The translations under genes and the position numbers were made by a program. The notes below the pieces were generated by a model that did not search any database, was not told the origin of the DNA, and saw nothing but the letters and a program-made list of their open reading frames with translations. Of a DNA stretch of 64,000 nucleotides, positions 2,621-61,870 are shown piece after piece (within the stretch, counting starts at the first letter, position 1; each line of letters opens with the position of its first letter). Origin of the DNA: Candidatus Woesearchaeota archaeon (GTDB taxonomy: Archaea; Nanobdellota; Nanobdellia; Woesearchaeales; UBA10216); contig JACPBS010000010.1 in assembly GCA_016180195.1 (NCBI GenBank), positions 16,687 to 80,686 of the forward strand, in the 5' to 3' direction.

Positions 2621-3061
2621 TTAGTCTTTTGTTTTCAGGTAATGAATTACCAGCAGGATGATTCCTATGCTTATGCTTGCGTCCGCTACGTTGAATGCGG
2701 GCCAAAACCCGAAGTCAATGAAATCTATAACATGGCCCCGGAATATCCTGTCTATTATGTTCCCTGTCGTTCCTCCGAGGATTAGGCCAACTCCGATTTT
2801 CGCGGTCTTGCTTTTTGTTTTTCTGTAGAACAGTAGTATTGCTGCGGAAAATGCGATGCCGATGATTCCCAGGATGAGCGATGAGTTCTTGAAGAGCCCG
2901 AATGCAGCACCTGTATTTTTAACAAGTTGTATCTTGAGAAGCCCAAGATCTATTGGGTAGGAAAGCTTGTTTGCAAGAAATTTCGAAAGCTGGTCTATGG
3001 CAACTATTGCTGCGGTCAGCAAAAGCAGGGCTTTACCATCCTCTTTTCCTGAAATATTCAT
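2621..3061 (-). CDS. lspA: Lipoprotein signal peptidase (signal peptidase II)
   Basis: LspA motifs NTGAAFG, GGTTGNIIDR and FNVAD. Four predicted TM segments. Confidence 0.8.
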   Translation of the reverse strand: MNISGKEDGKALLLLTAAIVAIDQLSKFLANKLSYPIDLGLLKIQLVKNTGAAFGLFKNSSLILGIIGIAFSAAILLFYRKTKSKTAKIGVGLILGGTTGNIIDRIFRGHVIDFIDFGFWPAFNVADASISIGIILLVIHYLKTKD

Positions 3062-16745: not shown

Positions 16746-18512
16746 TCATTTTACAAGAACAACGATGCTTCCTGACCCTGATTTTAGAGGGGTCATTGCA
16801 ACGCCTATGAGGTTTAGTGAATTGATCTTTTCCGGGTATCCCTTCATTCCCATCCCCTTTCTTGAACCTGCAACTACAGGATCCCCTATTCTGATCTCCC
16901 CGTTCTCATCGCTTACCTTTACAACTACCCTGCCTGCGACAGCTACGGGCGTGTCTCCGTCGGCTGAAAGCATTATTGCTGTGGAATTTGAGACAACTCC
17001 GAGGATCGGGGATTGGTAGGGCTTGGAGGCCAATGCTCCGTTTCCATCATTGCCTATTACAAGTACATCTCCGGGGTTTGCCTTTTCAGTCATGAATCCT
17101 TCGGCTATGTCAGCATAGCTTCCGCCTGGGGTGTAGAGGATTCCATCGTTGTCAAAGCGCCATCGGTTATAATCAGGGTTGCCTGGAGTTGATTTCTGCA
17201 CGACCAGCGCAATATCAGCATCCCTGCCACCCCTGCTTATGAGGTAGGTTGTTCCAATTCCGGTTCCAAATGCACCCACTGCGTTCTCAATGGTAAATAG
17301 TGTTGCATCATCGTCAAAAGTCCCGTTTGCCTTTCCAAGATATATGCCGTTTTTTGATGCTGAGTAAATGGGGATTGCGACTTTTCCGTTAAAATAACCT
17401 GCAAATTTGCTGCCTTCTCCATAAACTCCAACCGCACCCGCAGTTGGGTGTATGTATCCTAAACGGCCAAGCCCCTGCTGGATTCCGTCGTTAACCCAGC
17501 CTCTTGTGCCTGTTCCCAGTGTTGAAGAGCCATCTACGCCTATTCCTGTTGTGGCTGTGCCCGATACCCCTGAGCTAGCCGTCGCACTTCCAGAAACACC
17601 GATCGAAGTTGCGGTTAAAGCCTGTCCCCAGACTCCAATTGCTGAGTCGCCTGTCGCAACGCCCTCAACGCCCCTTCCAAAATCCCCTGATGACCAGCCA
17701 TGGACACCTGCACTGGAAAAGCCTGTGTTGGTCCCATTTACAGCAGGCTCATAGACCCCTGAATAAATAACATTAAGCCTTCCCCTGGGAGTGCCTGTCC
17801 CAAGCCCTATCTTTCCAAGGTATTGGTAAAGCTCTGAACTGCTTATTGCGCTAGGTCCTAGAAATACAGCTATCCTGTCAGCATTTCCGCTTCCGGTTAT
17901 GCCTGATGGCCAGCCTGTCCTGCAATCCCCGTTAAGGCAGAGCCCAACACTCCCCGTAGGCCCACCAGCCTCCCTATAATTTGCATCGATAATCACATTA
18001 GATCCTCCAGGAGGAGAAAGGTGAATGTTGTTGTTGGCAGACCAGATTCTTCCGTTTATTATCGAGGTGCCCCAGCCCTTTGATTCGCCCTCGATCCTTA
18101 TCATGTTTGTGACGCTTACATTCCCGTCAAAGTACCCTGAAACGCCTGTGGTTGAAGCTCCATACACGCCATAGCCTGAGCCTGAGACGCCTACAGCTCC
18201 TATTCCTTGGGTAGAGCTGCCGACAACACCGTTGCCTGTTGTTGCTTCGCCAAGTACCCCGTAACCTGAGGAATTTGTACTTCTTCCATAAACTCCTCTG
18301 CCGCTTGGTTGATTATTCTCACCCCTTACAGAAACCGCGCCGCTTCCTGAAAATAAACTTCCAGACCAACCCGGGGAACCTACCCTATATTCGGTTGTTT
18401 CTCTGAAAACGCCTCCCTGAACTTCTGCTGCAGTGTGGGTTCCCCCGCCAGCAAAAACTAATCCTATTGATAAACAAAGCATAACAGAAACTAGCAAGCA
18501 CCTCTTTAACAT
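16746..18512 (-). CDS. Secreted Gly/Ser/Thr-rich repeat protein
   Basis: Signal peptide (LLVSVMLCLSIGLVFA). Dozens of short GxGV(Y/L)G-type repeats. Globular C-terminus. Confidence 0.55.
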   Translation of the reverse strand: MLKRCLLVSVMLCLSIGLVFAGGGTHTAAEVQGGVFRETTEYRVGSPGWSGSLFSGSGAVSVRGENNQPSGRGVYGRSTNSSGYGVLGEATTGNGVVGSSTQGIGAVGVSGSGYGVYGASTTGVSGYFDGNVSVTNMIRIEGESKGWGTSIINGRIWSANNNIHLSPPGGSNVIIDANYREAGGPTGSVGLCLNGDCRTGWPSGITGSGNADRIAVFLGPSAISSSELYQYLGKIGLGTGTPRGRLNVIYSGVYEPAVNGTNTGFSSAGVHGWSSGDFGRGVEGVATGDSAIGVWGQALTATSIGVSGSATASSGVSGTATTGIGVDGSSTLGTGTRGWVNDGIQQGLGRLGYIHPTAGAVGVYGEGSKFAGYFNGKVAIPIYSASKNGIYLGKANGTFDDDATLFTIENAVGAFGTGIGTTYLISRGGRDADIALVVQKSTPGNPDYNRWRFDNDGILYTPGGSYADIAEGFMTEKANPGDVLVIGNDGNGALASKPYQSPILGVVSNSTAIMLSADGDTPVAVAGRVVVKVSDENGEIRIGDPVVAGSRKGMGMKGYPEKINSLNLIGVAMTPLKSGSGSIVVLVK

Positions 18513-27990: not shown

Positions 27991-28329
27991 TCAATTCAAT
28001 CCCAGGCTTGTTCTAAGTGCTTCATCAACCTTTTCCATAAAATCAACATCCAGTTTCCCTATTTTTTTCAGAAGTCTTGTTTTATCAACGGCTCTTATTT
28101 GGTTTAAAAGGGCTTTTGAATCCTTGTCAAGCCCAAAACCCTTTGGAATCAAAACTTCAAATGGATAAGAGTAATCAGTATTTTTTGAGCTTACAGGTGC
28201 AATTATTGTTGTATCGCTGTATTTGTTTCCAAAATCATTTTGAATAATTATTGCCGGCCTTGATTTATTAATCTCATGCCCCAAAGTGGGATTAAGATTC
28301 ACGATCCATATTTCTCCTCTATTTACCAT
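27991..28329 (-). CDS. mazF: MazF/PemK-family mRNA interferase toxin
   Basis: GEIWIVNLNPTLGHEINKSRPAIIIQND...IIAPVSS...LNQIRAVDKTRL is the classic MazF fold sequence. Confidence 0.8.
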   Translation of the reverse strand: MVNRGEIWIVNLNPTLGHEINKSRPAIIIQNDFGNKYSDTTIIAPVSSKNTDYSYPFEVLIPKGFGLDKDSKALLNQIRAVDKTRLLKKIGKLDVDFMEKVDEALRTSLGLN

Positions 28330-28547
28330 TCTTCAAACTCTGAAGAGGCAGGTTCCCATTCCTTCAAGGTTTCCAGGTTGGATTTCCCCAAGCTTTTGTA
28401 GCCAGTTATTAGTTCTTTTTTCAACTCCATTTTCTTCACCTTCTTAATCAGTCCTGAGATAATCTCGTCATAAGTCTCATTATCTTTTTTTAGCTCATCC
28501 AGGGCAAATTTGGTTTTATAGTGTATTTTCACTGTTGTAACATTCAT
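28323..28547 (-). CDS. Putative cognate antitoxin of MazF
   Basis: Small ORF immediately upstream, overlapping the toxin start by 7 nt. Start set at MNVTTVKIHY, right after a TATA box and direct repeats. Confidence 0.5.
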   Translation of the reverse strand: MNVTTVKIHYKTKFALDELKKDNETYDEIISGLIKKVKKMELKKELITGYKSLGKSNLETLKEWEPASSEFEEW

Positions 28548-28569
28548 GGTATACTTTAGGTATACTTTT
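28548..28569 (-). promoter_or_regulatory. Tandem direct repeat (GGTATACTTT x2, containing the GTATAC palindrome) between the TATA box and the antitoxin start; candidate autoregulatory operator
   Basis: Repeat seen directly. The TATA-like box catataaa lies just upstream on the minus strand. Confidence 0.35.
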
Positions 28570-28690
28570 GCATATAAAAATATTTTCATTTCGAATTGCA
28601 GATTAATAAACATTAGCCAAAAAAAACCGTAAATTTGGGCTATGGAATCGGAAAAGCTTTTAAAAATGAAAACCAGTTTTTCATTCCTTC

Positions 28691-28999
28691 ATGAAAATGA
28701 CCTTCAACCGGAAAGTATACTGCCTTTGCAGGAAAATACCGAAAGGAAAAGTGACGACCTACAAGATTGTTGCAGAAAAGCTGGGCACAAAAGCGTACCG
28801 CGCAGTTGGCAATGCGTTAAACAAAAATCCGGATTCAACCACAGTTCCATGCCATCGCATTGTAGGAAGTGATGGACACCTGACAGGATTTGCAAGAGGG
28901 ATAAGAAAGAAGAAAGGGATGCTGGAAAAGGAAGGGATAAAGATAACCTGTTTTAAAGTCATGGAATTGGAAAAACATGTTTTCAGGTTCGATTTCTGA
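28691..28999 (+). CDS. ogt: Short MGMT/Ogt-family protein (DNA-binding domain with active-site Cys)
   Basis: VTTYKIVAEKLGTKAYRAVGNALNKNP...VPCHRIVGSDGHLTGF carries the PCHR motif. Confidence 0.7.
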   Translation: MKMTFNRKVYCLCRKIPKGKVTTYKIVAEKLGTKAYRAVGNALNKNPDSTTVPCHRIVGSDGHLTGFARGIRKKKGMLEKEGIKITCFKVMELEKHVFRFDF

Positions 29000-34322: not shown

Positions 34323-36230
34323 ATGTCAAAGGCATATTTTGCTGAGCACATGGGGAAGGATGATTTCCTGAAGCTGGCAGTGAAGTTTAATCCGAATGCA
34401 AATGTGAATCTTATTGGCAAGGCTTTTGATTTCGCTGAGCAGAGCCATCGTGGCCAGAAGAGGCTTTCTGGAAGGGATTATTTCCTTCATTGCAAGGAAG
34501 TTGCGTACATGCTTGTTAAGCTGAGGCTGGATACAGCCACGATTTGTGCAGGACTGCTCCATGATGTTCTTGAGGATTCTGACAGGAAGGGTGAAGAGAT
34601 CAGGAGAACTTTCGGCGAGGAAATCCATTATCTTGTTGTTGCCCTGACCAAGACGAAGAACATAAGCTTGCAGGCAAGCGATGAGGAAAGGGCGGAAAAC
34701 ATCAGGAAGGTTCTTCTTGCATCTATCAAGGATATAAGGGTGATTTTCATCAAGCTTGCTGACAGGCTCCATAATATGCGCACCCTTAAGTATCAGCCTT
34801 ATGATAAGCAGGTTGCTGTTTCAAGGGAGACCCTTGATATCTATGTTCCGATTGCGTATAAGCTTGGTATGTACAGGATAAAGTCTGAGCTTGAAGATCT
34901 GTGCCTTAAGCATCTTAACCCTTCTGTGTATATGGAGCTGAAGGTGAGGATTGACAAGAAGAAGGAGGAGAGGGAGCAGGAGGTTAAGTCTGTGATCAAG
35001 ACTGTGAAGAACATTCTAAGTTCAAGGGGGATTAAGGCAAAGATCAGCGGGAGGGCTAAGAATTTTTTCAGCATCTACAAGAAGATGCTCAGGAAAGGTG
35101 TCTCGTTTGAGGAGATTCACGACCTGTCCGCGATAAGGATCATTGCTGATAATCCTGATGACTGTTACAGGATTCTCGGCATAATCCATTCGACTTGGAC
35201 TCCTTTGGTCAAGAGGTTTGATGATTATATCGCATTTCCGAAGCCGAACATGTACCAGTCACTCCATACAGAGGTTTTGATCAACAAGAAGCCTGTTGAG
35301 GTTCAGATCAGGACTTGGAAGATGCATCACATTGCCGAAGAGGGGTTTGCCGCTCATTGGAGGTATAAGGATACGGAGAGGGATAAGAGGTTCGATCGGA
35401 AAATAGCGTGGCTCAAGCAGATTCTGGAATGGAGGATGTCCTCAAATGCCAAGGAATTCCTGGAGAACCTTAAGATTGATCTTTTCAAGGACGAGATTTA
35501 CGCTATCACCCCAAAAGGGGATCCTATATCGCTTCCCGAGAAGGCAACTCCGGTTGATTTTGCCTTCGCTGTTCATACGGATATAGGCAACCGCTGTGTC
35601 AGGGCCAAGGTGAATAATGCAATCGTTCCTTTGGATCATGAGCTCAAAAGTGGCGATGTTGTTGAGATAATAACTTCAAAGAATGCCGTTCCTTCAAGGA
35701 ACTGGCTGAAGTTCGTGAAGACAACCTTGGCTAAGAGCAAGATAAGGCACGGGCTTGGTATTCTGCTTCCTGAAGCTCAGTCTGAAAAGGAAATTGCTGA
35801 TGAGGAGCAGGTGATCTCAAGGATTGATTTTGAGAAGAGCTCCATGCTGAAGCTTTCCAGGTGTTGCCTGCCCAGGTATGGTGACCAGTTAACAGGCTAC
35901 AGGATGAAGGATGGTAAGATTGCTGTTCATAAGGCAGGCTGTGATAATTTCAGGCAGCTTGATTCAGGCAGGAAGATGTTGCTGGGTTGGAAGGGCATGG
36001 AGAGCTCGGGGACCGTGAAGCTCCGTGCAGAGGTGATTGAGAGCAGTGGGATGTTCCAGGAGGTTCTTGGTTCGCTTACGAGCAGCGGTGTAAAGATAGA
36101 ATCAATCCGTGCAAAGACGAGCAAGAACAGGCTGTTGATATTGCTCGAAGTGAAGCCTGGAAGCGAGTTGGGAAAGGCGATTGACACCCTAAAAAAGGTT
36201 GAGAACGTGATTGAGGTCAGGATAGAATAG
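34323..36230 (+). CDS. Full-length RelA/SpoT homologue (HD hydrolase + (p)ppGpp synthetase + TGS + ACT)
   Basis: HD motif (HRGQKR...LLHDVLED). Synthetase motifs (RAKNFFSIYKKM, YIAFPKPNMYQSLHT, EVQIRTWKMHHIAEEGFAAHWRYK). TGS (IYAITPKGD) and a C-terminal ACT. Confidence 0.85.
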   Translation: MSKAYFAEHMGKDDFLKLAVKFNPNANVNLIGKAFDFAEQSHRGQKRLSGRDYFLHCKEVAYMLVKLRLDTATICAGLLHDVLEDSDRKGEEIRRTFGEEIHYLVVALTKTKNISLQASDEERAENIRKVLLASIKDIRVIFIKLADRLHNMRTLKYQPYDKQVAVSRETLDIYVPIAYKLGMYRIKSELEDLCLKHLNPSVYMELKVRIDKKKEEREQEVKSVIKTVKNILSSRGIKAKISGRAKNFFSIYKKMLRKGVSFEEIHDLSAIRIIADNPDDCYRILGIIHSTWTPLVKRFDDYIAFPKPNMYQSLHTEVLINKKPVEVQIRTWKMHHIAEEGFAAHWRYKDTERDKRFDRKIAWLKQILEWRMSSNAKEFLENLKIDLFKDEIYAITPKGDPISLPEKATPVDFAFAVHTDIGNRCVRAKVNNAIVPLDHELKSGDVVEIITSKNAVPSRNWLKFVKTTLAKSKIRHGLGILLPEAQSEKEIADEEQVISRIDFEKSSMLKLSRCCLPRYGDQLTGYRMKDGKIAVHKAGCDNFRQLDSGRKMLLGWKGMESSGTVKLRAEVIESSGMFQEVLGSLTSSGVKIESIRAKTSKNRLLILLEVKPGSELGKAIDTLKKVENVIEVRIE

Positions 36231-44120: not shown

Positions 44121-44846
44121 ATGCTTCCTTATTTCACCTTATCATCTTTTAAGCTGGGATTTATCACGATTCATGTCTGGGGGATTTTTGCTGCGCTTGG
44201 TTTCATTGTTGGGATGTTTTTTGCTTCAAGGGAGGCTGCGAAAAGGGGGCTGGACCCTGATGCGATCCATGATTCTGCTCCATGGGTGATGCTTGGCGCC
44301 ATTGTGGGGGCGCGGATTGTTTTCCTTCTGGAGAACCCCTGGGCTGTTTCAGGCTTTTTTGATATTTTCAGTGTTTGGAATGGGGGCCTTGCTTTTCATG
44401 GGGGCTTTTTTGGGGGAGTCGGTGTTTTTTTGGCTTATATGAGGCACAAGGGCTTGAGTGTCTTAAGATATTCAGATGCGATTGCTCCTGGCATAGCTAT
44501 AGGCCATGCGGTTGGCAGGTTAGGATGCCATGTAACTGGCATGCATGTTGGCAAGGAGTCTTCGCTTCCGTGGTCAATATTTCATGAGGGGGCTGCCAGG
44601 CATCCGGTTATTCTGTATGAGATTGCGGCTTTGCTCCTCATTTTTTTTGTTCTTTTGTGGGTGAGGGAAAGGAAATTCTCCCGTGTTGATGGGCGTGTTT
44701 TCTTCATGTACATTGCATTGTATAGCTTCGCAAGGTTTTTCATTGAGTTTTTCAGGACAGACCCTGTTTATTTTGGCTTTTCAGCAGCTCAATTTATTGT
44801 CGTTGCCGTTTTTGCTGCTTCCCTGTTTTTCCTGTTTAGAAAATAG
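44121..44846 (+). CDS. lgt: Prolipoprotein diacylglyceryl transferase
   Basis: WNGGLAFHGGFFGG (Lgt GGLxxHGG motif). GRLGCHVTG is a degenerate Lgt signature. C-terminal ARFFIEFFRTDP...SAAQ. Confidence 0.75.
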   Translation: MLPYFTLSSFKLGFITIHVWGIFAALGFIVGMFFASREAAKRGLDPDAIHDSAPWVMLGAIVGARIVFLLENPWAVSGFFDIFSVWNGGLAFHGGFFGGVGVFLAYMRHKGLSVLRYSDAIAPGIAIGHAVGRLGCHVTGMHVGKESSLPWSIFHEGAARHPVILYEIAALLLIFFVLLWVRERKFSRVDGRVFFMYIALYSFARFFIEFFRTDPVYFGFSAAQFIVVAVFAASLFFLFRK

Positions 44847-49929: not shown

Positions 49930-50175
49930 GGCGAATTGGGTTTTACAAGCAGAATACGTCTTCTAACAGTTCTTCTAATAGTGCCAACAACTGTTGGCGA
50001 TCCGGGGGATGCCCCATCCGGGGTGGCGAGAAGCTCCCAAATTGAGCAAAGCTCAATTGGGCCAAATCACGCTGAAAGCGTGATTTGGGTTTTTGCCAAA
50101 CCAAAAAAGCGTCCAACCATTGTTGTTGGCACAATCAAGGAAAACAGGCAACAATTTTTTACTCATGCTGCGGAG
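49930..50175. repeat. Structured repeat element A (candidate ncRNA or MITE), 54 nt upstream of the argS ATG
   Basis: Shares two near-identical blocks (about 70 nt and 60 nt) and the ACUCAUGCUGCGGA terminus with element B. Contains an 11-bp closing helix and an R1-like hairpin insert. Confidence 0.5.
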
Positions 50176-51898: not shown

Positions 51899-51947
51899 TC
51901 TGTGGTTTTCGCTACTTTTAAATATCGGGCTCATATCCCGGCAGCTG

Positions 51948-54900
51948 ATGGAAGGGCTTGATTTTAAGACTACTGCTGATATCAAGGTTCCACAGAGGAT
52001 TGTGGACCAGGTGATTGGTCAGGAGGACGCTGTCAGGACTATTAGGAAGGCTGCAAAGCAACGGAGGCATGTTCTTCTCATAGGCAATCCTGGAACTGGC
52101 AAGTCAATGTTGGGGATGGCCCTTGCTGAGCTTCTTCCTAAGGAGAAGCTTGTTGATGTAATTTCCTTTTCAAACCCTAATGACGAGAACCAGCCTTTGA
52201 TCAGGACGGTTCCGGCTGGCCAGGGCAGGGAGCTCGTGACTAAGTCCAGGCTTGAGGCGACGAATGTCTTCAAGTACCAGAACGCAATTATGCTTGCTCT
52301 TCTCATAGTGACGATCATTTCGCCATGGTGGGCATTTAACCATTATACAAACGTTGGGGGTTATCTTCTTGGCGGTTTGATGTTCATCGCTTTTTTCCTT
52401 GGAGGGATGGTTTTTTTCGCGAGCTTCATCCTGTTCATTAATTTTGGCAGGAAGGCTGATAACAGGGGCAGGATTCCGAAGGTCATAGTTGATAATTTCA
52501 GCAAGAAGCAGGTTCCTTTTTTTGACGCAACCGGGGCTCATGCAGGTGCATTGCTTGGCGATGTATTGCATGATCCTTTCCAGTGTATCCCTGGCGACGA
52601 ACTTATTCATTTGCCTAATGGAAAGCCGGTTAAGATCAAGGATCTGGTTGATCCATTTTTAGATTCAGATGGCGAGAAGGAACTTCGTGATCAGGATCAA
52701 TTCGATGTGTTGTCCGGCATAAAATCTGGTTTCGGATTCACTTCTGCGAAAGTTTTTAGGGTTTTCAGAAGATTTTTTGATGATGAACTGATTGTTTTGG
52801 AGACTTCGAGGGGTTATAAGATCAGGGTTACTCCGAACCATCCTGTTGCCATTTATTCGCCTGCGGGCCATATTGACTTCATTCCTGCAGCCTCAATTTC
52901 AAGAAAAATGAGATGTGTTGTTCCAAACAGGATTCCTATCACGGCTAGTGAAAGGTTAAGCCCTTCTTTTATTAATTTCCTTGCAGAAACCTTGTCAGAT
53001 GGCTGCATAAGGGAGAGGTCTGTTGCTTTTAAAGTTAGAACAAAATGGAAGGCAGAGGCATATAAAGCCACGATCAAGGCTATTGGTCATGTTCCGAGAA
53101 TAATAAACAGGGGCGGCGATATTGAAATTTATTTAAATTCTGCAGAACTTGTAAGAACCCTTTTAAAAATGGGGGTAAAAAAGAATGGGAAAAAAGAACT
53201 TCCTGAAGTATTATTTGGCTTGCCAAAAGAGGGCGTATTTAGATTTTTGGCCCGTTACATCTCGATAGATGGATATGTGGGTAAGCAGGGTCAGTTTGAA
53301 ATAGTTTCCAAGGAGCTTATTCCAGATATTACTGCGCTCCTCCTTAAGATAGGTGTTAGGGCAAAAATAAGGCATAGGCCTGACCACGGGTTTGGGTTGG
53401 CAAAGGGCATAATTCAGCCACGAATTATCTTTTCAGATTTTGAGTTTGCAGGAGTTTATAGGGAGTTGACGATTAATCCAACTCATAAGGCAAACCTGGA
53501 TTCCTATTTGAGTTCGACCAGTTTCAGGCATGTTTCGAAAGATGATGTGATTCCTGTTGAATTTGGCTGGATGGAAAGGATCAGGCTAAAGGCCGGGCTT
53601 AGTAAGGGTAAAACTCATGATGCATATTATGCCTTAAACCCGGAAGTCCCAAGCCATTCGGCTCCAACACGGCGTTTGCTTCAAAAGGTTTTGGATAGGT
53701 TCCTTTCTTTTACCAACGATGAAGACCTTTTTAGGCTGCGTGATGTTGTGCAGGGCACTTTTGATTTTGATGAAATTGTTTCCGTCTCAAAGGAGAAATT
53801 CTTGGGGCATGTTTATAATCTAACCACCAGTACTGGTACTTATGTGGTTGCGCAGTTGCTCACCCATAATTCCGGCGGCCTTGGAACGCCTGCCCATGAG
53901 AGGGTTGTTGCTGGAATGATCCATAAGGCGCACATGGGTGTTCTTTTTATTGATGAGATAGCAACGCTTCAGCCTTCGACCCAGCAGGAGCTTTTGACTT
54001 CGCTGCAGGAAGGCAAGTATTCCATAACAGGTCAGAGTGAGAGGTCTGCTGGCGCCATGGTCAGGACTGAGTCAGTTCCGTGTAATTTCATTCTTGTTGC
54101 TGCCGGGAATATAGAGACAATCAGGCAGATGCACCCTGCATTAAGGTCAAGGGTTAGGGGTTATGGGTATGAGGTTTTTATGAAGGAGACCATGCCTGAT
54201 ACTGAGGAAAACAGGCTTAAGATCGCGAATTTTGTTGCTCAGGAGGTGTCCAAGGACAAGAAGATACCTCATTTCAGCAGGGATGCTGTGGATCAGATAA
54301 TAATTGCTGCCAGGAGGGCTGCTAACAGGAAGGGTCATTTGACGCTTCATCTTAGGGAGCTTGGAGGGCTTGTCCGTGCAGCAGGTGACCTGGCTACAGA
54401 GGAAAGTTCCAAGTTTGTTGAAAAGAAGCACGTCCTCAATGCGAAGAAGATGGCCAGAACCCTTGAGCAGCAGATCGCTGACAAGATAATTGAGCACAGG
54501 AAGGAGTATGAGGTCATTATTACCTCTGGCAAGAAAATTGGCAGGGTGAATGGGCTTGCGGTTCTTGGGGGCGGCACATCTTATTCAGGTCTTATCATGC
54601 CTATCGAGGCCGAGGTCACGCCTGGCGGGGAGGCTAAGGAAATTATTGCTACAGGCAAGCTGGGGGAGATTGCCAAAGAGGCTGTGTTGAATGTTTCTGC
54701 TATCATAAAGAAGTTTTTCGGAGAGGATATCAGGAAGACCCGTGATATCTATGTCCAGTTCCTCCAGACCTATGGGGAGGGTGTTGAGGGGGATTCTGCA
54801 AGCATCGCGGTGGCAACAGCAATAATCTCTGCATTGAAGGGCATCCCGGTAAAGCAGGATGTTGCGATGACTGGCAGCCTTTCTGTTCGCGGAGAGGTGC

Positions 54901-55118
54901 TTCCTGTTGGAGGGGTCTCATCAAAGGTTGAGGCTGCGCTTGAGGCGGGCATAATGAATGTGATTGTCCCGAGGACTAATCTCAAGGATATCATCATGGA
55001 CAAGTCGGATTACTCTAAAATAAGGATAATTCCCGTTGATAACATCGGTGAAGTTCTTTCAGAGGCCCTTGAGTGGAAGGGTAATGAGCACATCCTGAAG
55101 AAGATCTCTTATGCTTGA
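51948..55118 (+). CDS. lonB: Archaeal membrane-bound Lon protease (LonB) interrupted by an intein
   Basis: Walker A LLIGNPGTGKS. Two TM helices inserted in the AAA module. SGGLGTPAHERV and GVLFIDEI motifs. Ser-Lys protease domain (DSASIAVATAI...K). Confidence 0.9.
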   Translation: MEGLDFKTTADIKVPQRIVDQVIGQEDAVRTIRKAAKQRRHVLLIGNPGTGKSMLGMALAELLPKEKLVDVISFSNPNDENQPLIRTVPAGQGRELVTKSRLEATNVFKYQNAIMLALLIVTIISPWWAFNHYTNVGGYLLGGLMFIAFFLGGMVFFASFILFINFGRKADNRGRIPKVIVDNFSKKQVPFFDATGAHAGALLGDVLHDPFQCIPGDELIHLPNGKPVKIKDLVDPFLDSDGEKELRDQDQFDVLSGIKSGFGFTSAKVFRVFRRFFDDELIVLETSRGYKIRVTPNHPVAIYSPAGHIDFIPAASISRKMRCVVPNRIPITASERLSPSFINFLAETLSDGCIRERSVAFKVRTKWKAEAYKATIKAIGHVPRIINRGGDIEIYLNSAELVRTLLKMGVKKNGKKELPEVLFGLPKEGVFRFLARYISIDGYVGKQGQFEIVSKELIPDITALLLKIGVRAKIRHRPDHGFGLAKGIIQPRIIFSDFEFAGVYRELTINPTHKANLDSYLSSTSFRHVSKDDVIPVEFGWMERIRLKAGLSKGKTHDAYYALNPEVPSHSAPTRRLLQKVLDRFLSFTNDEDLFRLRDVVQGTFDFDEIVSVSKEKFLGHVYNLTTSTGTYVVAQLLTHNSGGLGTPAHERVVAGMIHKAHMGVLFIDEIATLQPSTQQELLTSLQEGKYSITGQSERSAGAMVRTESVPCNFILVAAGNIETIRQMHPALRSRVRGYGYEVFMKETMPDTEENRLKIANFVAQEVSKDKKIPHFSRDAVDQIIIAARRAANRKGHLTLHLRELGGLVRAAGDLATEESSKFVEKKHVLNAKKMARTLEQQIADKIIEHRKEYEVIITSGKKIGRVNGLAVLGGGTSYSGLIMPIEAEVTPGGEAKEIIATGKLGEIAKEAVLNVSAIIKKFFGEDIRKTRDIYVQFLQTYGEGVEGDSASIAVATAIISALKGIPVKQDVAMTGSLSVRGEVLPVGGVSSKVEAALEAGIMNVIVPRTNLKDIIMDKSDYSKIRIIPVDNIGEVLSEALEWKGNEHILKKISYA
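52584..53870 (+). mobile_element. Intein (about 429 aa) with a LAGLIDADG homing-endonuclease domain inside LonB
   Basis: Begins CIPGDELIHL. Two LAGLIDADG-like motifs (NFLAETLSDGCI, FLARYISIDGYVG). Ends VVAQLLTHN followed by Ser. Extein junction restores DPFQ|SGGLGTPAH. Confidence 0.8.
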
Positions 55119-56756: not shown

Positions 56757-56806
56757 TTATTATGTCAATCAACAATTATTTAAATAAGTATTGCAGAAGC
56801 TGGATC

Positions 56807-57463
56807 ATGGCTAAGGTTTCGCCTTCCATCCTTGCTGCTGATTTCAGCTCTTTGGGAAAGGAGGTGTACAGGGTCGGCAAGGCTGCTGATATGATTCATT
56901 TTGATGTCATGGATGGCCTTTTCGTGCCGAATATCACTTTTGGTCCTGCGGTTCTTGCTTCAATTCGAAGACATACGGCCTTGCCCATCGAGGCGCATCT
57001 TATGATCCAGAAGCCTTCAGGCTTTTTGGATCGGTTTGCTGTCTCTGGAGCCACGTTCATTACCGTTCATGTTGAAGCTGATTCGAGTATTCGTACGTTG
57101 AAAAGGATAAGGGAGTTGGGTGCTTTGCCTGGAATCGCATTGAACCCTTCAACCCCTGTCTCCGCGGTTAAGCCTGCCCTGGGCCATGTTTCCTTGGTTC
57201 TTGTGATGACTGTGAATCCGGGTTTTGGAGGGCAGGGTTTTATCATGTCATCCATTTCAAGGATTAGGCAGATAAGGTCCATGATCCTGGAACAGGATCT
57301 TGATGTGCTGATTGAGGTTGACGGAGGCATTAATCTTGATACGGCCAAGAAGGCTGTAGGTGCAGGGGCAGATGTTCTTGTGGCCGGTTCTTATGTTTAT
57401 GGGAGCAGAAACCCTGCTCAGGCGATAAATGCGTTGAAGAAGCTAAAATGCAAAGATATTTAA
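56807..57463 (+). CDS. rpe: Ribulose-phosphate 3-epimerase
   Basis: SPSILAADF, HFDVMDG and VMTVNPGFGGQ signatures. Start set at MAKVS, with a TATA box about 25 nt upstream. Confidence 0.85.
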   Translation: MAKVSPSILAADFSSLGKEVYRVGKAADMIHFDVMDGLFVPNITFGPAVLASIRRHTALPIEAHLMIQKPSGFLDRFAVSGATFITVHVEADSSIRTLKRIRELGALPGIALNPSTPVSAVKPALGHVSLVLVMTVNPGFGGQGFIMSSISRIRQIRSMILEQDLDVLIEVDGGINLDTAKKAVGAGADVLVAGSYVYGSRNPAQAINALKKLKCKDI

Positions 57464-57487
57464 ATAATTAATCACTATCCAGTAGTT

Positions 57488-58336
57488 ATGAATCTGGATG
57501 GGATAGTTTCAGCTTATGAAGTCAGGGATAGAGTTGCGAGGCTTGGTGAATGGCCTTTCCTGAAATGCCTGGCTTACGCTGCTGCAGTTGCGAATTCATT
57601 TTCTCCCTTACTTGTTAATGCTCTGTCAAATCAGGATTATGGGCAGGCCATGATTCAGGCTGCTGTAAATGGAGCAATATCTTTCCCTGCATCATATGTT
57701 TTTTCCCGAATGCTTGTAAGGTACCGGTGTGAATCCATGGTGGATGAGCTTACAGGCCTTCCCAATCTTAGGGCGCTGAAGCAGAGAATGCCAGAGGAAC
57801 TGAGCAGGGCATATAGGCAGCAGTCTCCTGTTTTTTTCCTGCAGATGGATCTTAAGGGGCTGAAATACGTAAATAATAATTTCGGGCTTGATGCCGGAAA
57901 TCAGCTGCTTCTGGAAGCTGTTTTGCGGATGAAGGAGCAGTTGAGGCCTTACGACTTTGTCGGAAGGTGCAGTACAACCGGGGGTTCTGATGAGTTCGTG
58001 GCAGTGCTTCCTTTGGGGTCCAATTACCCTAACAATGGCTTGTCTGGCTACGCATATTCTGTTTGCGAAAGAATAGTTGATTCAGGGAGTAGATCTCCTA
58101 TCGAATTCATGAATGGCAGGTTTTCTGAGAGGATTTCCCCCGAATTCAGGTGCGGAGCCCTCGTATACAGTCCGCCGGAGAAAAATGGGCATGCATTCGA
58201 TTCATGCGGGGAATCAGCAGAGATCCTTAAACAGCTAGGAATCCTGCTTGTAGACGTGAAGAGCCGCAACGAGATCATAGTTAGGGAATTTGGCAGAAAA
58301 GAAAATGTTCATAATTTTCCAACAGGAAAATTATGA
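57488..58336 (+). CDS. GGDEF-like domain protein (degenerate GGSDEF motif) with a hydrophobic N-terminus
   Basis: DELTGLPNLRAL, FLQMDLKGLKYVNNNFGLDAGNQLL and GRCSTTGGSDEFVAVLP are collinear with diguanylate cyclase domains. Confidence 0.65.
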   Translation: MNLDGIVSAYEVRDRVARLGEWPFLKCLAYAAAVANSFSPLLVNALSNQDYGQAMIQAAVNGAISFPASYVFSRMLVRYRCESMVDELTGLPNLRALKQRMPEELSRAYRQQSPVFFLQMDLKGLKYVNNNFGLDAGNQLLLEAVLRMKEQLRPYDFVGRCSTTGGSDEFVAVLPLGSNYPNNGLSGYAYSVCERIVDSGSRSPIEFMNGRFSERISPEFRCGALVYSPPEKNGHAFDSCGESAEILKQLGILLVDVKSRNEIIVREFGRKENVHNFPTGKL

Positions 58337-58353: not shown

Positions 58354-58602
58354 TTATCTCCTCTTCTTCTTTCTTCCTCCTCGTGCCATCTTGGCTCTTG
58401 ACACGTCCCCTTTTCCATCTATGAAGTAAAGGTATCCTTTCTCCTTCTTGACGCCGGGCTTAGCGACTACTTCCTGCTTCTGTCTTCCCTTCTTTCCTCC
58501 TCCCCGGACCATCTTTGCCTTGGCCACGTTTCCTTTCTTGTCGACAAAGTACAGGTAGCCTGATTCCTTCTTAACTCCTACTTTTGCAACCTTTTCAGCC
58601 AT
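58354..58602 (-). CDS. Small basic protein made of two tandem about 35-aa repeats
   Basis: KKESGYLYFVDKKGNVAKAKMVRGG and KKEKGYLYFIDGKGDVSRAKMARGG. Lys/Arg-rich. Confidence 0.5.
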   Translation of the reverse strand: MAEKVAKVGVKKESGYLYFVDKKGNVAKAKMVRGGGKKGRQKQEVVAKPGVKKEKGYLYFIDGKGDVSRAKMARGGRKKKRR

Positions 58603-58690: not shown

Positions 58691-59161
58691 TTACCGACGA
58701 GAATCAGCCAGTTCATCTGTTTTTGCAAAGTATTCCTTTGCGCGCTGGACGATGCTTTGAAGCACGAATTTTTCTATTTTCTGATCATAGATCTCGTTAA
58801 GCGACATGAATTCGGTTATCCTGTACTTGTTCAGGACTTTTTCGATTATGAACAGATCCTTTAGCCTCTTTAGCTGCCTTCTGATGTTTGAGGAGGCTAT
58901 CCCGGTCAGTTGAAGCTTGTGTTTTTTCCTGTTTTCTATGACTTTCTTCTCGATTTCCGTTGCGCTCAGGGCTTTTCGCTTTTTCTTGCTCCTCAGCAGG
59001 ACTTGAAGCACGTCAACCATGACATCCCTTGAGTCGCCGGGTTGGAGCATGCCGATTGTGAGGCAGACTTTTTTTATGAGCTCCCTTTCCTTGAGGTTCA
59101 TTGGTTTCTCATACTTTCTGAGGGTAAGCTCTGAAAGCGGAGTGTCGCGCGATATGTTCAT
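58691..59161 (-). CDS. Putative wHTH DNA-binding protein
   Basis: Helix-turn-helix-like segment (LTGIASSNIRRQLKRLKDL) then a beta wing. Start set at MNISRD. Confidence 0.35.
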   Translation of the reverse strand: MNISRDTPLSELTLRKYEKPMNLKERELIKKVCLTIGMLQPGDSRDVMVDVLQVLLRSKKKRKALSATEIEKKVIENRKKHKLQLTGIASSNIRRQLKRLKDLFIIEKVLNKYRITEFMSLNEIYDQKIEKFVLQSIVQRAKEYFAKTDELADSRR

Positions 59162-59396
59162 GACAGGAATATTTAAGAAATGATTATATAAAAATTTTTT
59201 TAATGCATTGGTTTTCAAAATTTTGTTGAAATTTTGCGTCGGAAAATTTTTTGCATGAAAAAAATTTCTTTTTTCCATCCTGCGTTTTGATTTTTTTCTG
59301 AAATTTCTCGTCGAGGATTTTTTTGTTTTTTAAAAAAATAGAAAGGTTTAAATATATGTTGCAGCAATAATAATGCATCAGGTGATAATTACCAAG

Positions 59397-59921: not shown

Positions 59922-60812
59922 ATGACCAGGAAAATGAATCCTCACTTTTCATCCCCTTTTAACTTCGGGGCAATCCCCAGGCAGCTATCGGGTTATGAGA
60001 AATCCAGAATAGTGATCCTTCCTGTCCCCTATGACGCGACAACCTCGTTTAAGCCGGGTGCAAGGGATGGCCCGTCAGCTATAATCTCCGCATCCAGGAG
60101 CATGGAGCTTTTTGACTTGGAGTCTGGGAAGAACCTTTCCGAGCTCGGGATATGTACGCTTGACGAGCTCGACATTCTTGTTGATCCTGAGAAGATGGCA
60201 AGCAGGGTTTGTGAAGCAGTCATGCAGCTTTTGCATGACAAGAAGTTTGTTGTGATGCTTGGAGGGGAGCATTCTCTAAGTATAGGCTCTGTAAGGGCAT
60301 TCAAGGACTCTTATCCTGGGTTGTCAGTTCTTCATCTCGATGCTCATGCAGATCTTAGGGACGAGAACGGGGGTTCGAGATTTGATCATGGCTGTGCAGC
60401 AAGGAGGATTTCGGAAATCTGTCCTGTTGTTCAAGCGGGAATCAGGAGCCTGAGCAAGGAGGAAGCTGATTTCATCAAAGAATCCAAGCAAAGGATATTC
60501 TTTGCAAAGGACATGGCGGAGAATGATTCATGGATGGATGAGGCAATATCCGCATTGGGGGATGAAGTTTATGTTACCCTTGATCTGGATGTATTAGACC
60601 CGGGCATTATGCCTTCTGTTGGCACTCCCGAGCCCGGTGGCCTGGGATGGTATCCCCTTCTCGCTTTCCTGAAAAGGGTGTCTGGGAAAAAAAAGGTGGT
60701 TGGATTTGATGTTGTTGAGCTTTCGCCGCAGAAGAACGTGTCTTCAGATTTCCTTGCTGCGAAGCTTGTTTACAAGATGATGGGTTACTTCAATGAAAGG
60801 AATTTACACTAA
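59922..60812 (+). CDS. speB: Agmatinase (ureohydrolase family)
   Basis: GGEHSLS, DAHADLRD and TLDLDVLDP manganese-binding motifs. Confidence 0.85.
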   Translation: MTRKMNPHFSSPFNFGAIPRQLSGYEKSRIVILPVPYDATTSFKPGARDGPSAIISASRSMELFDLESGKNLSELGICTLDELDILVDPEKMASRVCEAVMQLLHDKKFVVMLGGEHSLSIGSVRAFKDSYPGLSVLHLDAHADLRDENGGSRFDHGCAARRISEICPVVQAGIRSLSKEEADFIKESKQRIFFAKDMAENDSWMDEAISALGDEVYVTLDLDVLDPGIMPSVGTPEPGGLGWYPLLAFLKRVSGKKKVVGFDVVELSPQKNVSSDFLAAKLVYKMMGYFNERNLH

Positions 60813-61599: not shown

Positions 61600-61870
61600 A
61601 CTATTCGCAGAATAGCCTCCTCCATAAGAGCAGCCCGGTCTAACAGTTGTTCTAATAGTGCCAACAACGGTTGGCGATCCGGGGGATGCCCCATCCGGGG
61701 TGGCGAGAGCTTTTTTCGCCCAGCAAAAAAGCGTCCAACCATTGTTATTGTTGGCACAATCAAGGAAAACAGGCAAAAATTTTCAGATAAATTTCGCCTT
61801 GGGTTCAAATCCCCACCCTTTAGGTCGAAGATTGCTCCGATCAGCGGATTTTTGTTACTCATGCTGCGGA
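61600..61870. repeat. Structured repeat element B (candidate ncRNA or MITE), 53 nt upstream of a DUF2156-like gene
   Basis: Same two conserved blocks and terminus as element A. Instead of the hairpin insert it carries a tRNA T-arm-like segment GGGUUCAAAUCCCC near its 3' end. Confidence 0.5.

Follow-up and report, generated by a model that had tools for sequence, protein, structure and literature searches.

The reference diguanylate cyclase is PleD from Caulobacter crescentus (PDB 1w25, 2v0n, 9g85 and 9g86), for which the roles of the pocket residues, including the guanine-specifying D344, and of R300 have been described (PMC7288161 and bioRxiv 10.1101/2025.08.22.671821, the latter for R300). 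SiaD from Pseudomonas aeruginosa (PDB 7e6g, NCBIfam NF038266) comprises a helical stalk and a GGDEF domain with a canonical GGEEF signature, and needs its partner SiaC. GSDEF domains, in which the second glycine of the signature is replaced by serine, occur in SesB (Thermosynechococcus), B2043 (Cupriavidus necator) and PFLU5960 (Pseudomonas fluorescens), the first two being GGDEF-EAL fusions from bacteria that use c-di-GMP. The reports on GSDEF activity differ, SesB being inactive (PMC13571940) and PFLU5960 activatable (PMC4395868). As for Archaea, reviews regard c-di-GMP and its enzymes as essentially absent, the few GGDEF matches in archaeal assemblies still awaiting proof of their archaeal origin (PMC5847659, PMC10086821, PMC10249747). 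The archaeal GGDEFs noticed earlier are CAJ37382 from Methanocella arvoryzae and a REC domain fused to an inactivated GGDEF in 'Ca. Micrarchaeum acidiphilum' (PMC5847659).

The locus studied here lies in a 64-kb stretch of DNA (the window), which NCBI attributes to a 'Candidatus Woesearchaeota archaeon'. It corresponds to a complete coding sequence on the forward strand (57488-58336, ATG to stop, 282 amino acids), the product of which (the window protein) is already in GenBank as "GGDEF domain-containing protein" (MBI2133871.1, found by exact-sequence look-up). This product is a true member of the GGDEF family, beyond a generic cyclase palm. It matched PF00990 (65.2 bits, E 7.7e-18; Pfam cut-off 23.8) and TIGR00254 (56.9 bits; cut-off 37.4), its profile matches being restricted to models of this type, and it retrieved 57 PDB sequences at E<=1, nearly all of them GGDEF proteins (top E 1.9e-12). 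The Pfam alignment covers aa 84-175 only, against positions 2-89 of the 161 of the profile; the C-terminal half of the domain (aa ~176-268) is unrecognisable at the sequence level, and a home-built GGDEF HMM failed to align it in glocal mode (hmmalign). A full GGDEF fold, including beta-alpha-beta elements in its second half, was predicted over aa 84-268 (57737-58291, forward strand) by an AF2 model (pLDDT 85 overall, >90 over most of aa 80-270) that was itself built from a GGDEF MSA, the single-sequence prediction (pLDDT 44) being unusable. In a Foldseek search with this model the top 50 matches were all GGDEF-domain proteins, nearly all annotated as diguanylate cyclases (TM of 0.81-0.86, normalised to isolated GGDEF structures). 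The sequence-only reading of this DNA had proposed a GGDEF-like domain collinear with diguanylate cyclases, and both points hold: the profile and PDB matches are far beyond chance; the DxLTGLxNR motif, the N335 equivalent, the RxxD motif and the signature hairpin were all matched; and the PF00990 alignment that it suggested as a check revealed GGDEF-specific residues, not a match to the generic palm only.

Upstream of the domain, aa 1-83 (57488-57736, forward strand) were modelled by AF2 with MSA, at a pLDDT of only 41-90, as three helices (7-18, 23-37 and 39-46) and a fourth, long one (49-83), which continues into the GGDEF domain and resembles those of SiaD and DgcB, the pLDDT being moderate there. 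This region is possibly a dimerisation stalk or a weakly hydrophobic two-helix membrane hairpin. We do not claim a membrane anchor, since the Kyte-Doolittle maxima over 19 residues (1.37 for aa 25-43 and 1.02 for aa 55-73, as compared to the usual transmembrane threshold of 1.6) are borderline. The layout of a helical stalk followed by a GGDEF domain is shared with SiaD, which was the top match in the PDB sequence search (E 1.9e-12), in NCBIfam (62 bits) and in Foldseek (E 1.7e-16). However, the score of 62 bits is far below the equivalog cut-off of the SiaD model (290 bits), and the window contains no SiaABC genes.

The comparison with PleD, collinear over aa 83-211, shows both the conservation and the remodelling of the domain. 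The window protein possesses the equivalents of D327, K332, N335, R300, R359xxD362, R366, E370/E371, F372 and K442, whereas it carries the D329K, D336N, H340L, D344N and G369S substitutions and a four-residue insertion, has lost Y439 and the RAD motif, and has no REC domains. First, the N-terminal DELTGLPNLR stretch (57743-57772, forward strand; translation and alignment) corresponds to the GGDEF-specific DxLTGLxNR motif, with D86, L88 and T89 invariant and G90 and N93 near-invariant in an alignment with 64 homologues (A1), and R95 aligns with R300 of PleD. Second, the pocket for the metal, the phosphates and the base (DLKGLKYVNNNFGLDAGN; 57848-57901, forward strand; translation and residue frequencies in 64 and 235 homologues) has kept D121 (D327), K126 (K332) and N129 (N335), and has been altered at K123 (D329), N130 (D336), L134 (H340) and N138 (D344). 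The D329K, D336N and H340L changes lie near D344N in the same pocket. Third, the translation shows an RxxD motif (R153-P-Y-D156; 57944-57955, forward strand) at the position of the allosteric I-site, where it aligns with R359-D362 of PleD, the Arg and the Asp each being present in 212 of the 235 homologues.

The signature itself requires a closer description. The R-CSTTG-GSDEF stretch (57965-57997) does contain the literal string GGSDEF (57980-57997) which the sequence-only reading had taken as the signature. This string exists, but it is not what the alignments support: three independent alignments (HMMER and MAFFT) placed G166-S167-D168-E169-F170 (57983-57997, forward strand) on G-G-[DE]-E-F and residues 162-165 as an insertion, so that the motif is best described, from these alignments, as GSDEF preceded by four additional residues. 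The second signature position is occupied by Gly in 231 of the 235 homologues and by Ser in the other four. The insertion (S162-T-T-G165; 57971-57982, forward strand) falls in the beta2-beta3 hairpin, just before the signature, where the pLDDT drops to ~85. It faced gaps in 64/64 homologues in A1, and the residues between the R366 and G368 equivalents number five in the window protein as compared to exactly one in 235/235 homologues. Owing to the insertion, the RxxD motif is separated from the signature by nine residues instead of the usual five. We found no literature on hairpin insertions in GGDEF domains or on Asn at the D344 position, and no hairpin insertion is described in SesB, B2043 or PFLU5960.

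With regard to ligands, the metal-binding carboxylates D327, E370 and E371 of PleD are kept as D121, D168 and E169, and the phosphate ligands K332, R366 and K442 are aligned with K126, R160 and K258, whereas the guanine recognition pair is incomplete (N335 kept as N129; D344 replaced by N138). Receptor-type degenerate GGDEF domains, unlike the window protein, often lose the Mg/phosphate ligands and the RxxD motif. At the C-terminus, where residues were assigned from MAFFT, from the secondary structure of the AF2 model and by visual inspection, K258-S-R-N (58259-58270, forward strand; translation and alignment) appears as a remnant of the phosphate-binding AKxxGRN motif. The K258 residue corresponds to K442 of PleD, in a column with Lys in 60 of the 64 homologues, and is placed by the model at the end of its last helix (239-260), and R260, as assigned by eye, may be the equivalent of R446 after a two-residue deletion. 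In A1, the equivalents of the near-invariant S221, A250/D251 and Y255 are lost, and the RAD/Y motif is gone. In total, the window protein deviates at 5 of the 16 catalytic or allosteric positions, and only 1 of the 235 nearest homologues deviates as much. The suspicion in the sequence-only reading that the protein may be catalytically altered is thus borne out, and extends beyond the signature to the four-residue insertion, D329K, D336N, H340L, D344N and the RAD/Y loss. Judging from the signature and the hairpin, which both depart from the canonical form, the window protein is not a canonical cyclase.

The proteins most similar in size and layout are small membrane-anchored GGDEFs (~284 aa) of uncultured, high-GC bacteria (P0006, P0009, P0014, P0028 and others). 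The P0006-type proteins share with the window protein a nearly identical VDELTGLPNLRAL motif, the Asn at the D344-equivalent position (GHGVGNELL) and the RxxD motif. They differ from it by a canonical GGDEF without insertion, by intact D329, D336 and H340 residues and by strongly hydrophobic transmembrane segments, and the identity to them (~41%) extends over only a third of the query. By sequence, the window protein is an orphan: no orthologue was found by exhaustive phmmer against 1.84 billion (1.84e9) representatives, in the 185,579 GTDB genomes scanned or by word-indexed search.

Homologues were detected only through synteny anchored on rpe. In the window, the GGDEF gene is located 24 bp downstream of rpe and 17 bp upstream of a conserved archaeal gene. 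The slot between rpe and a gene for a small basic protein of 82 aa (p82), which borders it on the other side, harbours GGDEF-derived genes in three related Woesearchaeal MAGs. These unannotated genes (L008:8723-9415, L013:4737-5417 and L017:1901-2719; 226-272 aa) directly follow rpe on the same strand. The slot is thus occupied in 4 of the 12 related genomes sampled, including that of the window, and is empty in the other eight, where no trace of a GGDEF gene could be detected. Scanning JGI metagenomes with an alignment of L008 and L013 found no orthologues. The slot proteins are homologous to GGDEF domains (hhalign probability 96.9%; 35 bits with Pfam for the L013 protein), and their signatures are more degenerate (GVDEF/GIDEY). 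Like the window protein, they have D327, 'GL-x-Y-x-N', a residue other than Gly at G369 and DE[FY], and have lost D329 and H340. Unlike it, they are soluble, start with a different N-terminus, lack the insertion, and have lost LTG, K332 (now His), R366 (now Val) and the second Gly while keeping D327, N335 and DE[FY]. The D121, D168 and E169 carboxylates are invariant across the four archaeal proteins, and the Asn at D344 is common to the window, L008 and L013 proteins, the L017 homologue having Asp. Identities to the window protein are 25-29% over 82-142 aligned residues (pairwise BLASTP), and bacterial GGDEFs give each slot protein a higher score than the window protein does. A tree of five flanking genes groups the window, L008 and L013 at 100% bootstrap, while L017, with two flanking genes only, is weakly placed in the genome tree. 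The slot genes are under purifying selection, the dN/dS of L008 versus L013 being ~0.22 at a dS of ~1.5. Hence, the slot family is constrained, though not for the canonical cyclase residues. Extending what the degenerate slot genes show to the window protein assumes that they have a common ancestry rather than having been captured independently. The patchy, fast-evolving and variable slot also suggested a defence system, which we rejected since neither the window protein nor its L013 and L017 homologues matched any PADLOC model.

The GGDEF gene resides in an archaeal genome. The sequence-only reading had assumed an archaeal host, in agreement with the NCBI source name and with the window genes encoding S8e, Dph2, S7, aEF-2, L7Ae, TFB, aIF2-gamma, aIF1A, Rpo11 and an intein-containing LonB, such archaeal markers standing on both sides of the GGDEF gene. 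Its GC content (0.464) is close to the mean of the window genes (0.459), its codon-usage z-score is 0.12, and the same gene call was found at this locus in three independent Logan assemblies (99.97-100% DNA identity). It is preceded by a TATA-box-like element, TTTAAATA (57459-57466, forward strand), centred 25 nt ahead of the ATG and overlapping the stop codon of rpe. The genes for LonB, UppS and SpeH and the ORF at 16746-18512 also have the perfect TTTAAATA octamer, centred 22-27 nt ahead of their ATG; it occurs 20 times in the window as compared to 3.0 expected (0/100 shuffles reach 20), and the L008 and L013 slot genes have TTTAAATA/TTTATATA at the corresponding upstream position. From its distance to the ATG and its overlap with the rpe stop codon, we infer that TTTAAATA acts as the promoter of the GGDEF gene, which would thus have an archaeal promoter of its own and a leaderless or near-leaderless mRNA.

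From these data we propose, with about even confidence, that the window protein is a clade-restricted, fast-evolving and remodelled GGDEF protein, operating as a nucleotide-binding regulator with weak or no cyclase activity. The gene, archaeal now, would ultimately be of bacterial origin, and would belong to a small set of fast-evolving GGDEF-derived genes that occupy one conserved slot (rpe to p82) in a Woesearchaeota sub-clade. The N-terminal helices, above all aa 49-83, would form a dimeric stalk, perhaps weakly associated with the membrane, and a Mg2+-purine nucleotide would be bound through D121, D168, E169, K126, R160, K258 and N129. The four additional hairpin residues, the replacement of the second Gly by Ser and that of D344 by Asn make an efficient guanine-specific synthesis of c-di-GMP unlikely, so that cyclase activity would be residual at most and we infer that the protein most likely binds a nucleotide as a sensor or regulator, in the manner of other degenerate GGDEF domains. 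The A-site might accept GTP or (p)ppGpp; alternatively, a cyclic dinucleotide might bind at the kept RxxD site. The Micrarchaeum GGDEF is comparable in being rare, in having a DPANN host and in being described as inactivated; it differs, as compared by description only, in its REC-GGDEF architecture versus the helical N-terminus of the window protein.

As part of the same proposal, and with the same even confidence, the GGDEF gene would not mark a c-di-GMP signalling network. The sequence-only reading had linked it with the RSH gene as imported bacterial second-messenger machinery, a view which these data do not favour. No Pfam match to EAL, HD-GYP, PilZ or MshEN was found in the scanned ORFs of the 64-kb window (53 ORFs of at least 120 aa, p82 with its 82 aa, and a selection of 10 smaller intergenic ORFs; the ORF at 59922-60812, outside the scan, was assigned as agmatinase via the Pfam matches of its orthologues), and no Rfam family, c-di-GMP riboswitches (GEMM) included, reached the gathering threshold in the window. 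The RSH gene is 21 kb away from the GGDEF gene and is lineage-wide in Woesearchaeota/Nanoarchaeota (>100 orthologues, 48-76% identity), whereas the GGDEF gene was found in only 4 of the 12 relatives sampled, and additional catalytic residues have disappeared from its positional homologues. The other statement of that reading, that c-di-GMP is essentially undocumented in archaea, agrees with the literature (PMC10249747, PMC5847659, PMC10086821). This locus argues that a GGDEF match alone is poor evidence of c-di-GMP signalling. The fast evolution and remodelled active sites of the archaeal copies suggest that a signalling domain imported from bacteria has been put to another use, and the four proteins, one near-canonical and three degenerate, make a short list for finding a role of GGDEF domains without a known c-di-GMP network.

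A counter-point is that the Mg/phosphate ligands, nearly all intact, and the RxxD motif look like those of an active, product-inhibited cyclase, in which the stalk dimer would join two GTP-loaded GGDEF domains to make c-di-GMP under RxxD feedback inhibition. We regard this as unlikely. The equivalents of D327, K332, N335, R300, R366, [D]E370, E371, F372 and K442 are kept along with RxxD; the top family and structure matches, such as SiaD and PleD, are active cyclases; and the gene has a promoter-like element of its own and native codon usage. The D344N change may be compatible with activity, since Asn occurs at this position in 36 of the 235 nearest bacterial homologues (15%), which have an otherwise canonical GGDEF, and the GSDEF protein PFLU5960 drives c-di-GMP-dependent phenotypes once activated by mutation (PMC4395868). 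However, the insertion in the catalytic hairpin is unique (0/235) and adds to G369S, D329K, D336N, H340L, D344N and the loss of the Y439 equivalent; the GSDEF protein SesB is inactive (PMC13571940); the positional homologues lack K332, R366 and GG; no turnover or effector genes or riboswitches were found in the window; and there has been no detection of c-di-GMP in any archaeon (PMC10249747).

It is more doubtful still that the protein is an altered nucleotidyl cyclase which, by analogy with Hypr GGDEFs, converts ATP or mixed NTPs into another cyclic or linear (di)nucleotide, a substrate use that the Asn in place of the guanine-specifying Asp and the remodelled hairpin would permit. The sequence-only reading had named a non-canonical nucleotide cyclase as its alternative, on which the data weigh neither way. 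The D344-equivalent position is a known specificity switch, from Asp to Ser in Hypr GGDEFs (PMC7288161, PMC6456294), an Asn could hydrogen-bond either purine, and the invariance of D121, D168 and E169 in the four slot proteins amid drift suggests that metal-dependent chemistry has been retained. Against this, Hypr enzymes (cGAMP synthases) require Ser/Thr and an intact GGDEF, in contrast with the Asn138 and GSDEF of the window protein; we found no characterised GGDEF with Asn at D344 in the literature; the Asn is not family-wide, the L017 homologue having Asp; and no candidate receptor was identified. We judge it improbable that the remodelled active site of the window protein, and perhaps of all slot proteins, works as a nucleotidyl cyclase of any kind, making c-di-GMP or another cyclic or linear dinucleotide. 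If true, Archaea would for the first time be credited with a second messenger made by a GGDEF domain, and the enzyme might be cross-regulated by the (p)ppGpp from the lineage-wide RSH, because (p)ppGpp binds the active site of PleD via residues that are largely kept here.

A decaying, now functionless remnant of an old horizontal transfer would account for the extreme divergence and orphan status of the sequence, for the patchy distribution (4/12 genomes) and for the disappearance of many near-invariant residues. We consider it very unlikely, given that the ORF runs uninterrupted over 282 codons and has both a promoter-like element and native codon usage, that the ligand-binding residues are selectively kept, that three other genomes carry intact slot genes, with a dN/dS of ~0.22 (L008 versus L013), and that the AF2 model is confident over the full fold.

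Finally, bacterial contamination or a chimeric assembly, a worry raised for bacterial-type response regulators in unfinished archaeal genomes, including a REC-GGDEF fusion (PMC5847659), and in line with the bacterial nature of the nearest homologues by sequence, has a negligible probability and is effectively refuted by the tight placement of the gene (24 bp separate it from rpe, and 17 bp from the conserved archaeal gene that follows) within 64 kb of archaeal genes, by the same junctions in three independent assemblies, by the native composition and by the synteny shared with related Woesearchaeal MAGs, the slot being filled by a GGDEF-derived gene in three of them. Together, the archaeal synteny, the native composition and promoter layout, and the relatives in sister genomes confirm the existence of a genuinely archaeal GGDEF gene in a DPANN archaeon.

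By profile, fold and motif, the 282-aa protein encoded by the ORF at 57488-58336 (+ strand, from ATG to stop; hereafter the window protein) belongs to the GGDEF domain family, and its gene is a bona fide, native one in a DPANN archaeon. The protein scored 65.2 bits (E 7.7e-18; cut-off 23.8) against Pfam PF00990 (GGDEF) and 56.9 bits (cut-off 37.4) against TIGR00254, and GenBank already names it by its domain (MBI2133871.1, 'GGDEF domain-containing protein [Candidatus Woesearchaeota archaeon]', 102-kb contig). Fifty-seven PDB sequences, nearly all GGDEF proteins, match it at E<=1, with SiaD (7e6g) at the top (E 1.9e-12) and PleD at 6e-8. Sequence profiles cover aa 84-175 only (profile positions 2-89 of 161); the AF2 model (65 aligned sequences; mean pLDDT 85; >90 across most of aa 80-270) predicts the whole GGDEF fold up to aa 268. 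In Foldseek searches against the PDB, each of the top 50 matches was a GGDEF-domain protein, nearly all annotated as diguanylate cyclases (TM 0.81-0.86, normalised to isolated GGDEF domains). Residues 1-83 are predicted to be helical, with a long helix (aa 49-83) leading into the GGDEF domain, as in SiaD and other stalk-regulated cyclases; the hydrophobicity of these 83 residues is below the level for calling transmembrane segments.

The window protein is an orphan by sequence. Among 5.8 billion clustered proteins, the next match after the protein itself shares 43% identity over 36% of the query, and no close relative was found among GTDB representative genomes. When 1.84 billion representatives were searched exhaustively with phmmer, the protein was its own sole match below 1e-30; at E<=1e-3 there were 65,498 others, which are far weaker (best 88 bits) and of which the top 150 have their best-scoring stretch mostly inside aa ~80-200. 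Closest in sequence come small, high-GC GGDEF membrane proteins of bacteria, which have VDELTGLPNLRAL and an Asn at D344 in common with the window protein but, unlike it, carry a canonical signature.

The active site was compared with that of PleD, the reference diguanylate cyclase of Caulobacter crescentus, with residue roles as given in PMC7288161 and in the PleD-(p)ppGpp study (PleD numbering, window residue in parentheses). The retained residues are R300 (R95), D327 (D121), K332 (K126), N335 (N129), the I-site R359xxD362 (R153xxD156), R366 (R160), G368 (G166), E370 (D168; D/E allowed), E371 (E169), F372 (F170) and K442 (K258). The changed ones are D329 (K123), D336 (N130), H340 (L134), the guanine-specificity residue D344 (N138), G369 (S167), the Ser of SxG (R221), the Ala-Asp of 'RAD' (L250-G251) and Y439 (V255). 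The motifs quoted by the sequence-only reading were recovered in place on translation. Its 'GGSDEF' string is correct, but in three independent alignments G166-S167-D168-E169-F170 falls on the GG[DE]EF signature and S162-T-T-G165 is inserted sequence, so that the string is better described as GSDEF after a 4-residue insert. These four additional residues lie in the beta2-beta3 hairpin. What is new is the unusual combination of changes: the insert is absent from 235/235 nearest homologues, Ser at G369 occurs in four and Asn at D344 in 36 of them, and five deviations at 16 key positions are a level matched by one. Two features that define a canonical diguanylate cyclase are lacking: an intact signature hairpin and the contact of D344 with guanine.

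Eleven further Woesearchaeal loci, located through the neighbouring rpe gene, were inspected. The order LonB-MscS-UppS(-)-RPE(+)-[slot]-p82(-)-p152(-)-SpeH-agmatinase-LPG_synthase_C, in which the slot is the position of the GGDEF gene, is kept in most of them; in the more distant L016 and L018 UppS-RPE-p76-p158 is the sole shared part. The slot is empty in eight genomes, where no remnants were found, and is occupied by a (+)-strand gene in three: L008 (8723-9415, 230 aa, GCA_053533055.1), L013 (4737-5417, 226 aa, GCA_053533195.1) and L017 (1901-2719, 272 aa, GCA_016188205.1). Their products (L008p-L013p, 58% identity; L013p-L017p, 40%) are GGDEF-derived and reveal a small Woesearchaeal family of such genes at one locus, which is also new. 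L013p scores 35 bits against Pfam GGDEF, and the trio aligns with a GGDEF alignment (hhalign probability 96.9%, E 1.7e-10); its matches to the window protein are weak (E 6e-7, 0.003 and 0.03), but cover the same motifs. The three proteins have degenerated further than the window protein (no LTG motif; K332 to His; R366 to Val; signature G[VI]DE[FY]), with D327, N335, the DE pair and the C-terminal Lys still present. The dN/dS between the L008 and L013 slot genes (~0.22, approximate since dS is ~1.5; neighbouring genes 0.02-0.14) shows the family to be under purifying, though relaxed, selection.

A tree of five flanking genes groups the window with L008 and L013 (100% bootstrap) and leaves L014, whose slot is empty, outside (93%). 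As the flanking proteins of the window and L008/L013 are 72-74% identical, versus ~26-29% for the slot proteins, these data fit a single acquisition followed by very fast divergence. GGDEF genes may instead have been captured independently into the same slot, because the two flanking genes available for L017 give it no firm position, and for each degenerate protein the window protein is outscored by bacterial GGDEFs.

From the following lines of evidence, we favour, at about even chances, the reading that the window protein is a regulatory GGDEF protein which binds nucleotide and has residual activity at most. First, nucleotide binding would be retained, given the conserved Mg/phosphate ligands and N335. 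Second, the hairpin insert, which is unique, together with G369S and the remodelling of the base pocket would make efficient, guanine-specific c-di-GMP synthesis unlikely. Third, as the sister proteins lack K332, R366 and the GG and yet are constrained, the selected function of the family would be other than canonical cyclase activity. The main counter-argument is the good preservation of the ligand set and RxxD, which would be unusual in an inactive domain. The activity record of GSDEF domains is mixed, SesB having no cyclase activity (PMC13571940) and PFLU5960 being activatable (PMC4395868). Among the rivals, we regard an active c-di-GMP synthase as unlikely. A cyclase with an altered substrate or product seems more doubtful still; the protein does not match Hypr GGDEF domains, which need Ser or Thr with an intact GGDEF. 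A functionless relic, set against selection that is relaxed but purifying, is very improbable.

The archaeal host, as first proposed, is borne out by the identical NCBI record, the assemblies, the composition and the archaeal genes on both flanks (S8e, S7, L7Ae, Dph2, aEF-2, TFB, aIF2-gamma, aIF1A, Rpo11 and an intein-containing LonB). The rpe-GGDEF-p82 junctions were recovered in three independent Logan assemblies (identity 99.97-100%), and both GC (0.464; window mean 0.459) and synonymous-codon likelihood (z-score 0.12) lie in the usual range of the window. The ATG is preceded by a perfect TTTAAATA box, centred 25 nt upstream, and LonB, UppS, SpeH and one further ORF carry this octamer 22-27 nt upstream of theirs; the gene is probably expressed. 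Galperin et al. 2018 (PMC5847659) had warned of contamination or chimerism behind archaeal matches of this kind; here it was dismissed as next to impossible on account of the archaeal neighbours, the three assemblies, the native composition and the octamer box. True archaeal residence is thus newly demonstrated, which answers a question left explicitly open by earlier authors, that of the reality of archaeal GGDEF genes; archaeal c-di-GMP signalling is not thereby established. Window-wide, TTTAAATA occurs 20 times (3 expected), typically 22-27 nt upstream of start codons (for example 51917-51924, 56777-56784 (-), 57459-57466 and 59347-59354), a placement that suggests TATA boxes and mostly leaderless mRNAs.

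Neither EAL, HD-GYP, PilZ nor MshEN domains were found in the scanned ORFs of the 64-kb window (53 of at least 120 aa, p82 and 10 selected smaller ones; the agmatinase ORF was identified from orthologues only), no Rfam family reached threshold in it, c-di-GMP riboswitches included, and the window protein has no PADLOC defence match. The RSH gene invoked earlier is real (34323-36230, +; full-length bifunctional type with HD_4, RelA_SpoT, TGS and ACT). Its more than 100 orthologues (48-76% identity), of which every organism-named one is from Woesearchaeota or Nanoarchaeota, point to a lineage-wide RSH in these DPANN archaea, although reviews know of no description of (p)ppGpp from archaea. The idea that it and the GGDEF gene, 21 kb apart, are shared imported machinery is not supported: the evolutionary histories of the two genes differ, and they are not parts of one module.

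Outside the GGDEF slot, too, this neighbourhood is a hot spot of variable gene content, since in some relatives additional genes (369-375 aa, no Pfam family) lie between p82/p83 and p152 at L011:9256-11102 and L013:5872-6981. The p82 gene (58354-58602, -) encodes an 82-aa Lys/Arg-rich protein built from two internal repeats, KKxxGYLYF[VI]DxKG[ND][VI]..., which has no Pfam family and is very highly conserved and syntenic at every related Woesearchaeal locus inspected. Beside it, as in all relatives, the ORF at 58691-59278 (-) is listed as 195 aa; its orthologues are all 152 aa, so translation probably begins near 59149 instead (MNISRDTPL...). No Pfam family matches it, its PADLOC match is weak (Csa3-like wHTH, 16.5 bits), and its product is possibly a small transcription regulator. 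LonB (51948-55118, +; 1056 aa) contains an intein (Intein_splicing Pfam match), as in L015 (1055 aa); it is intein-free in L008 and L013 (627-643 aa), and in L010 and L011 the gene call is split around the intein.

Two bacterial-type lipoprotein maturation genes occur in the window, Lgt (prolipoprotein diacylglyceryl transferase; 44121-44846, +; 189 bits), also found near rpe in the more distant relatives (L016:5754-6557, L018:4714-5553), and LspA (signal peptidase II; 2621-3061, -; 122 bits). A non-coding element of 150-200 nt is present in two copies of the same orientation (49962-50158 and about 61640-61800, +), of which the first immediately precedes ArgRS (ATG 50228) and the second the first LPG_synthase_C gene (ATG 61923). 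It has an 11-nt outer inverted repeat (GTGCCAACAAC...GTTGTTGGCAC), two additional internal hairpins in copy 1, a predicted RNA fold of -79 kcal/mol (z = -5.9) and no match in Rfam; it is either MITE-like or a structured leader common to two aminoacyl-tRNA-linked genes. The GC content falls to 0.40 over 28-30 kb, and this low-GC patch encodes a MazF/PemK toxin (27991-28329, -) overlapped by a VapB-like antitoxin (28323-28613, -), as well as an Ogt-like methyltransferase DNA-binding domain (28691-28999, +). Lastly, the 642-aa ORF at 7075-9003 (+) has an unusual architecture, an amino-acid permease (aa 8-400) being fused to a class I SAM methyltransferase (aa 445-608).
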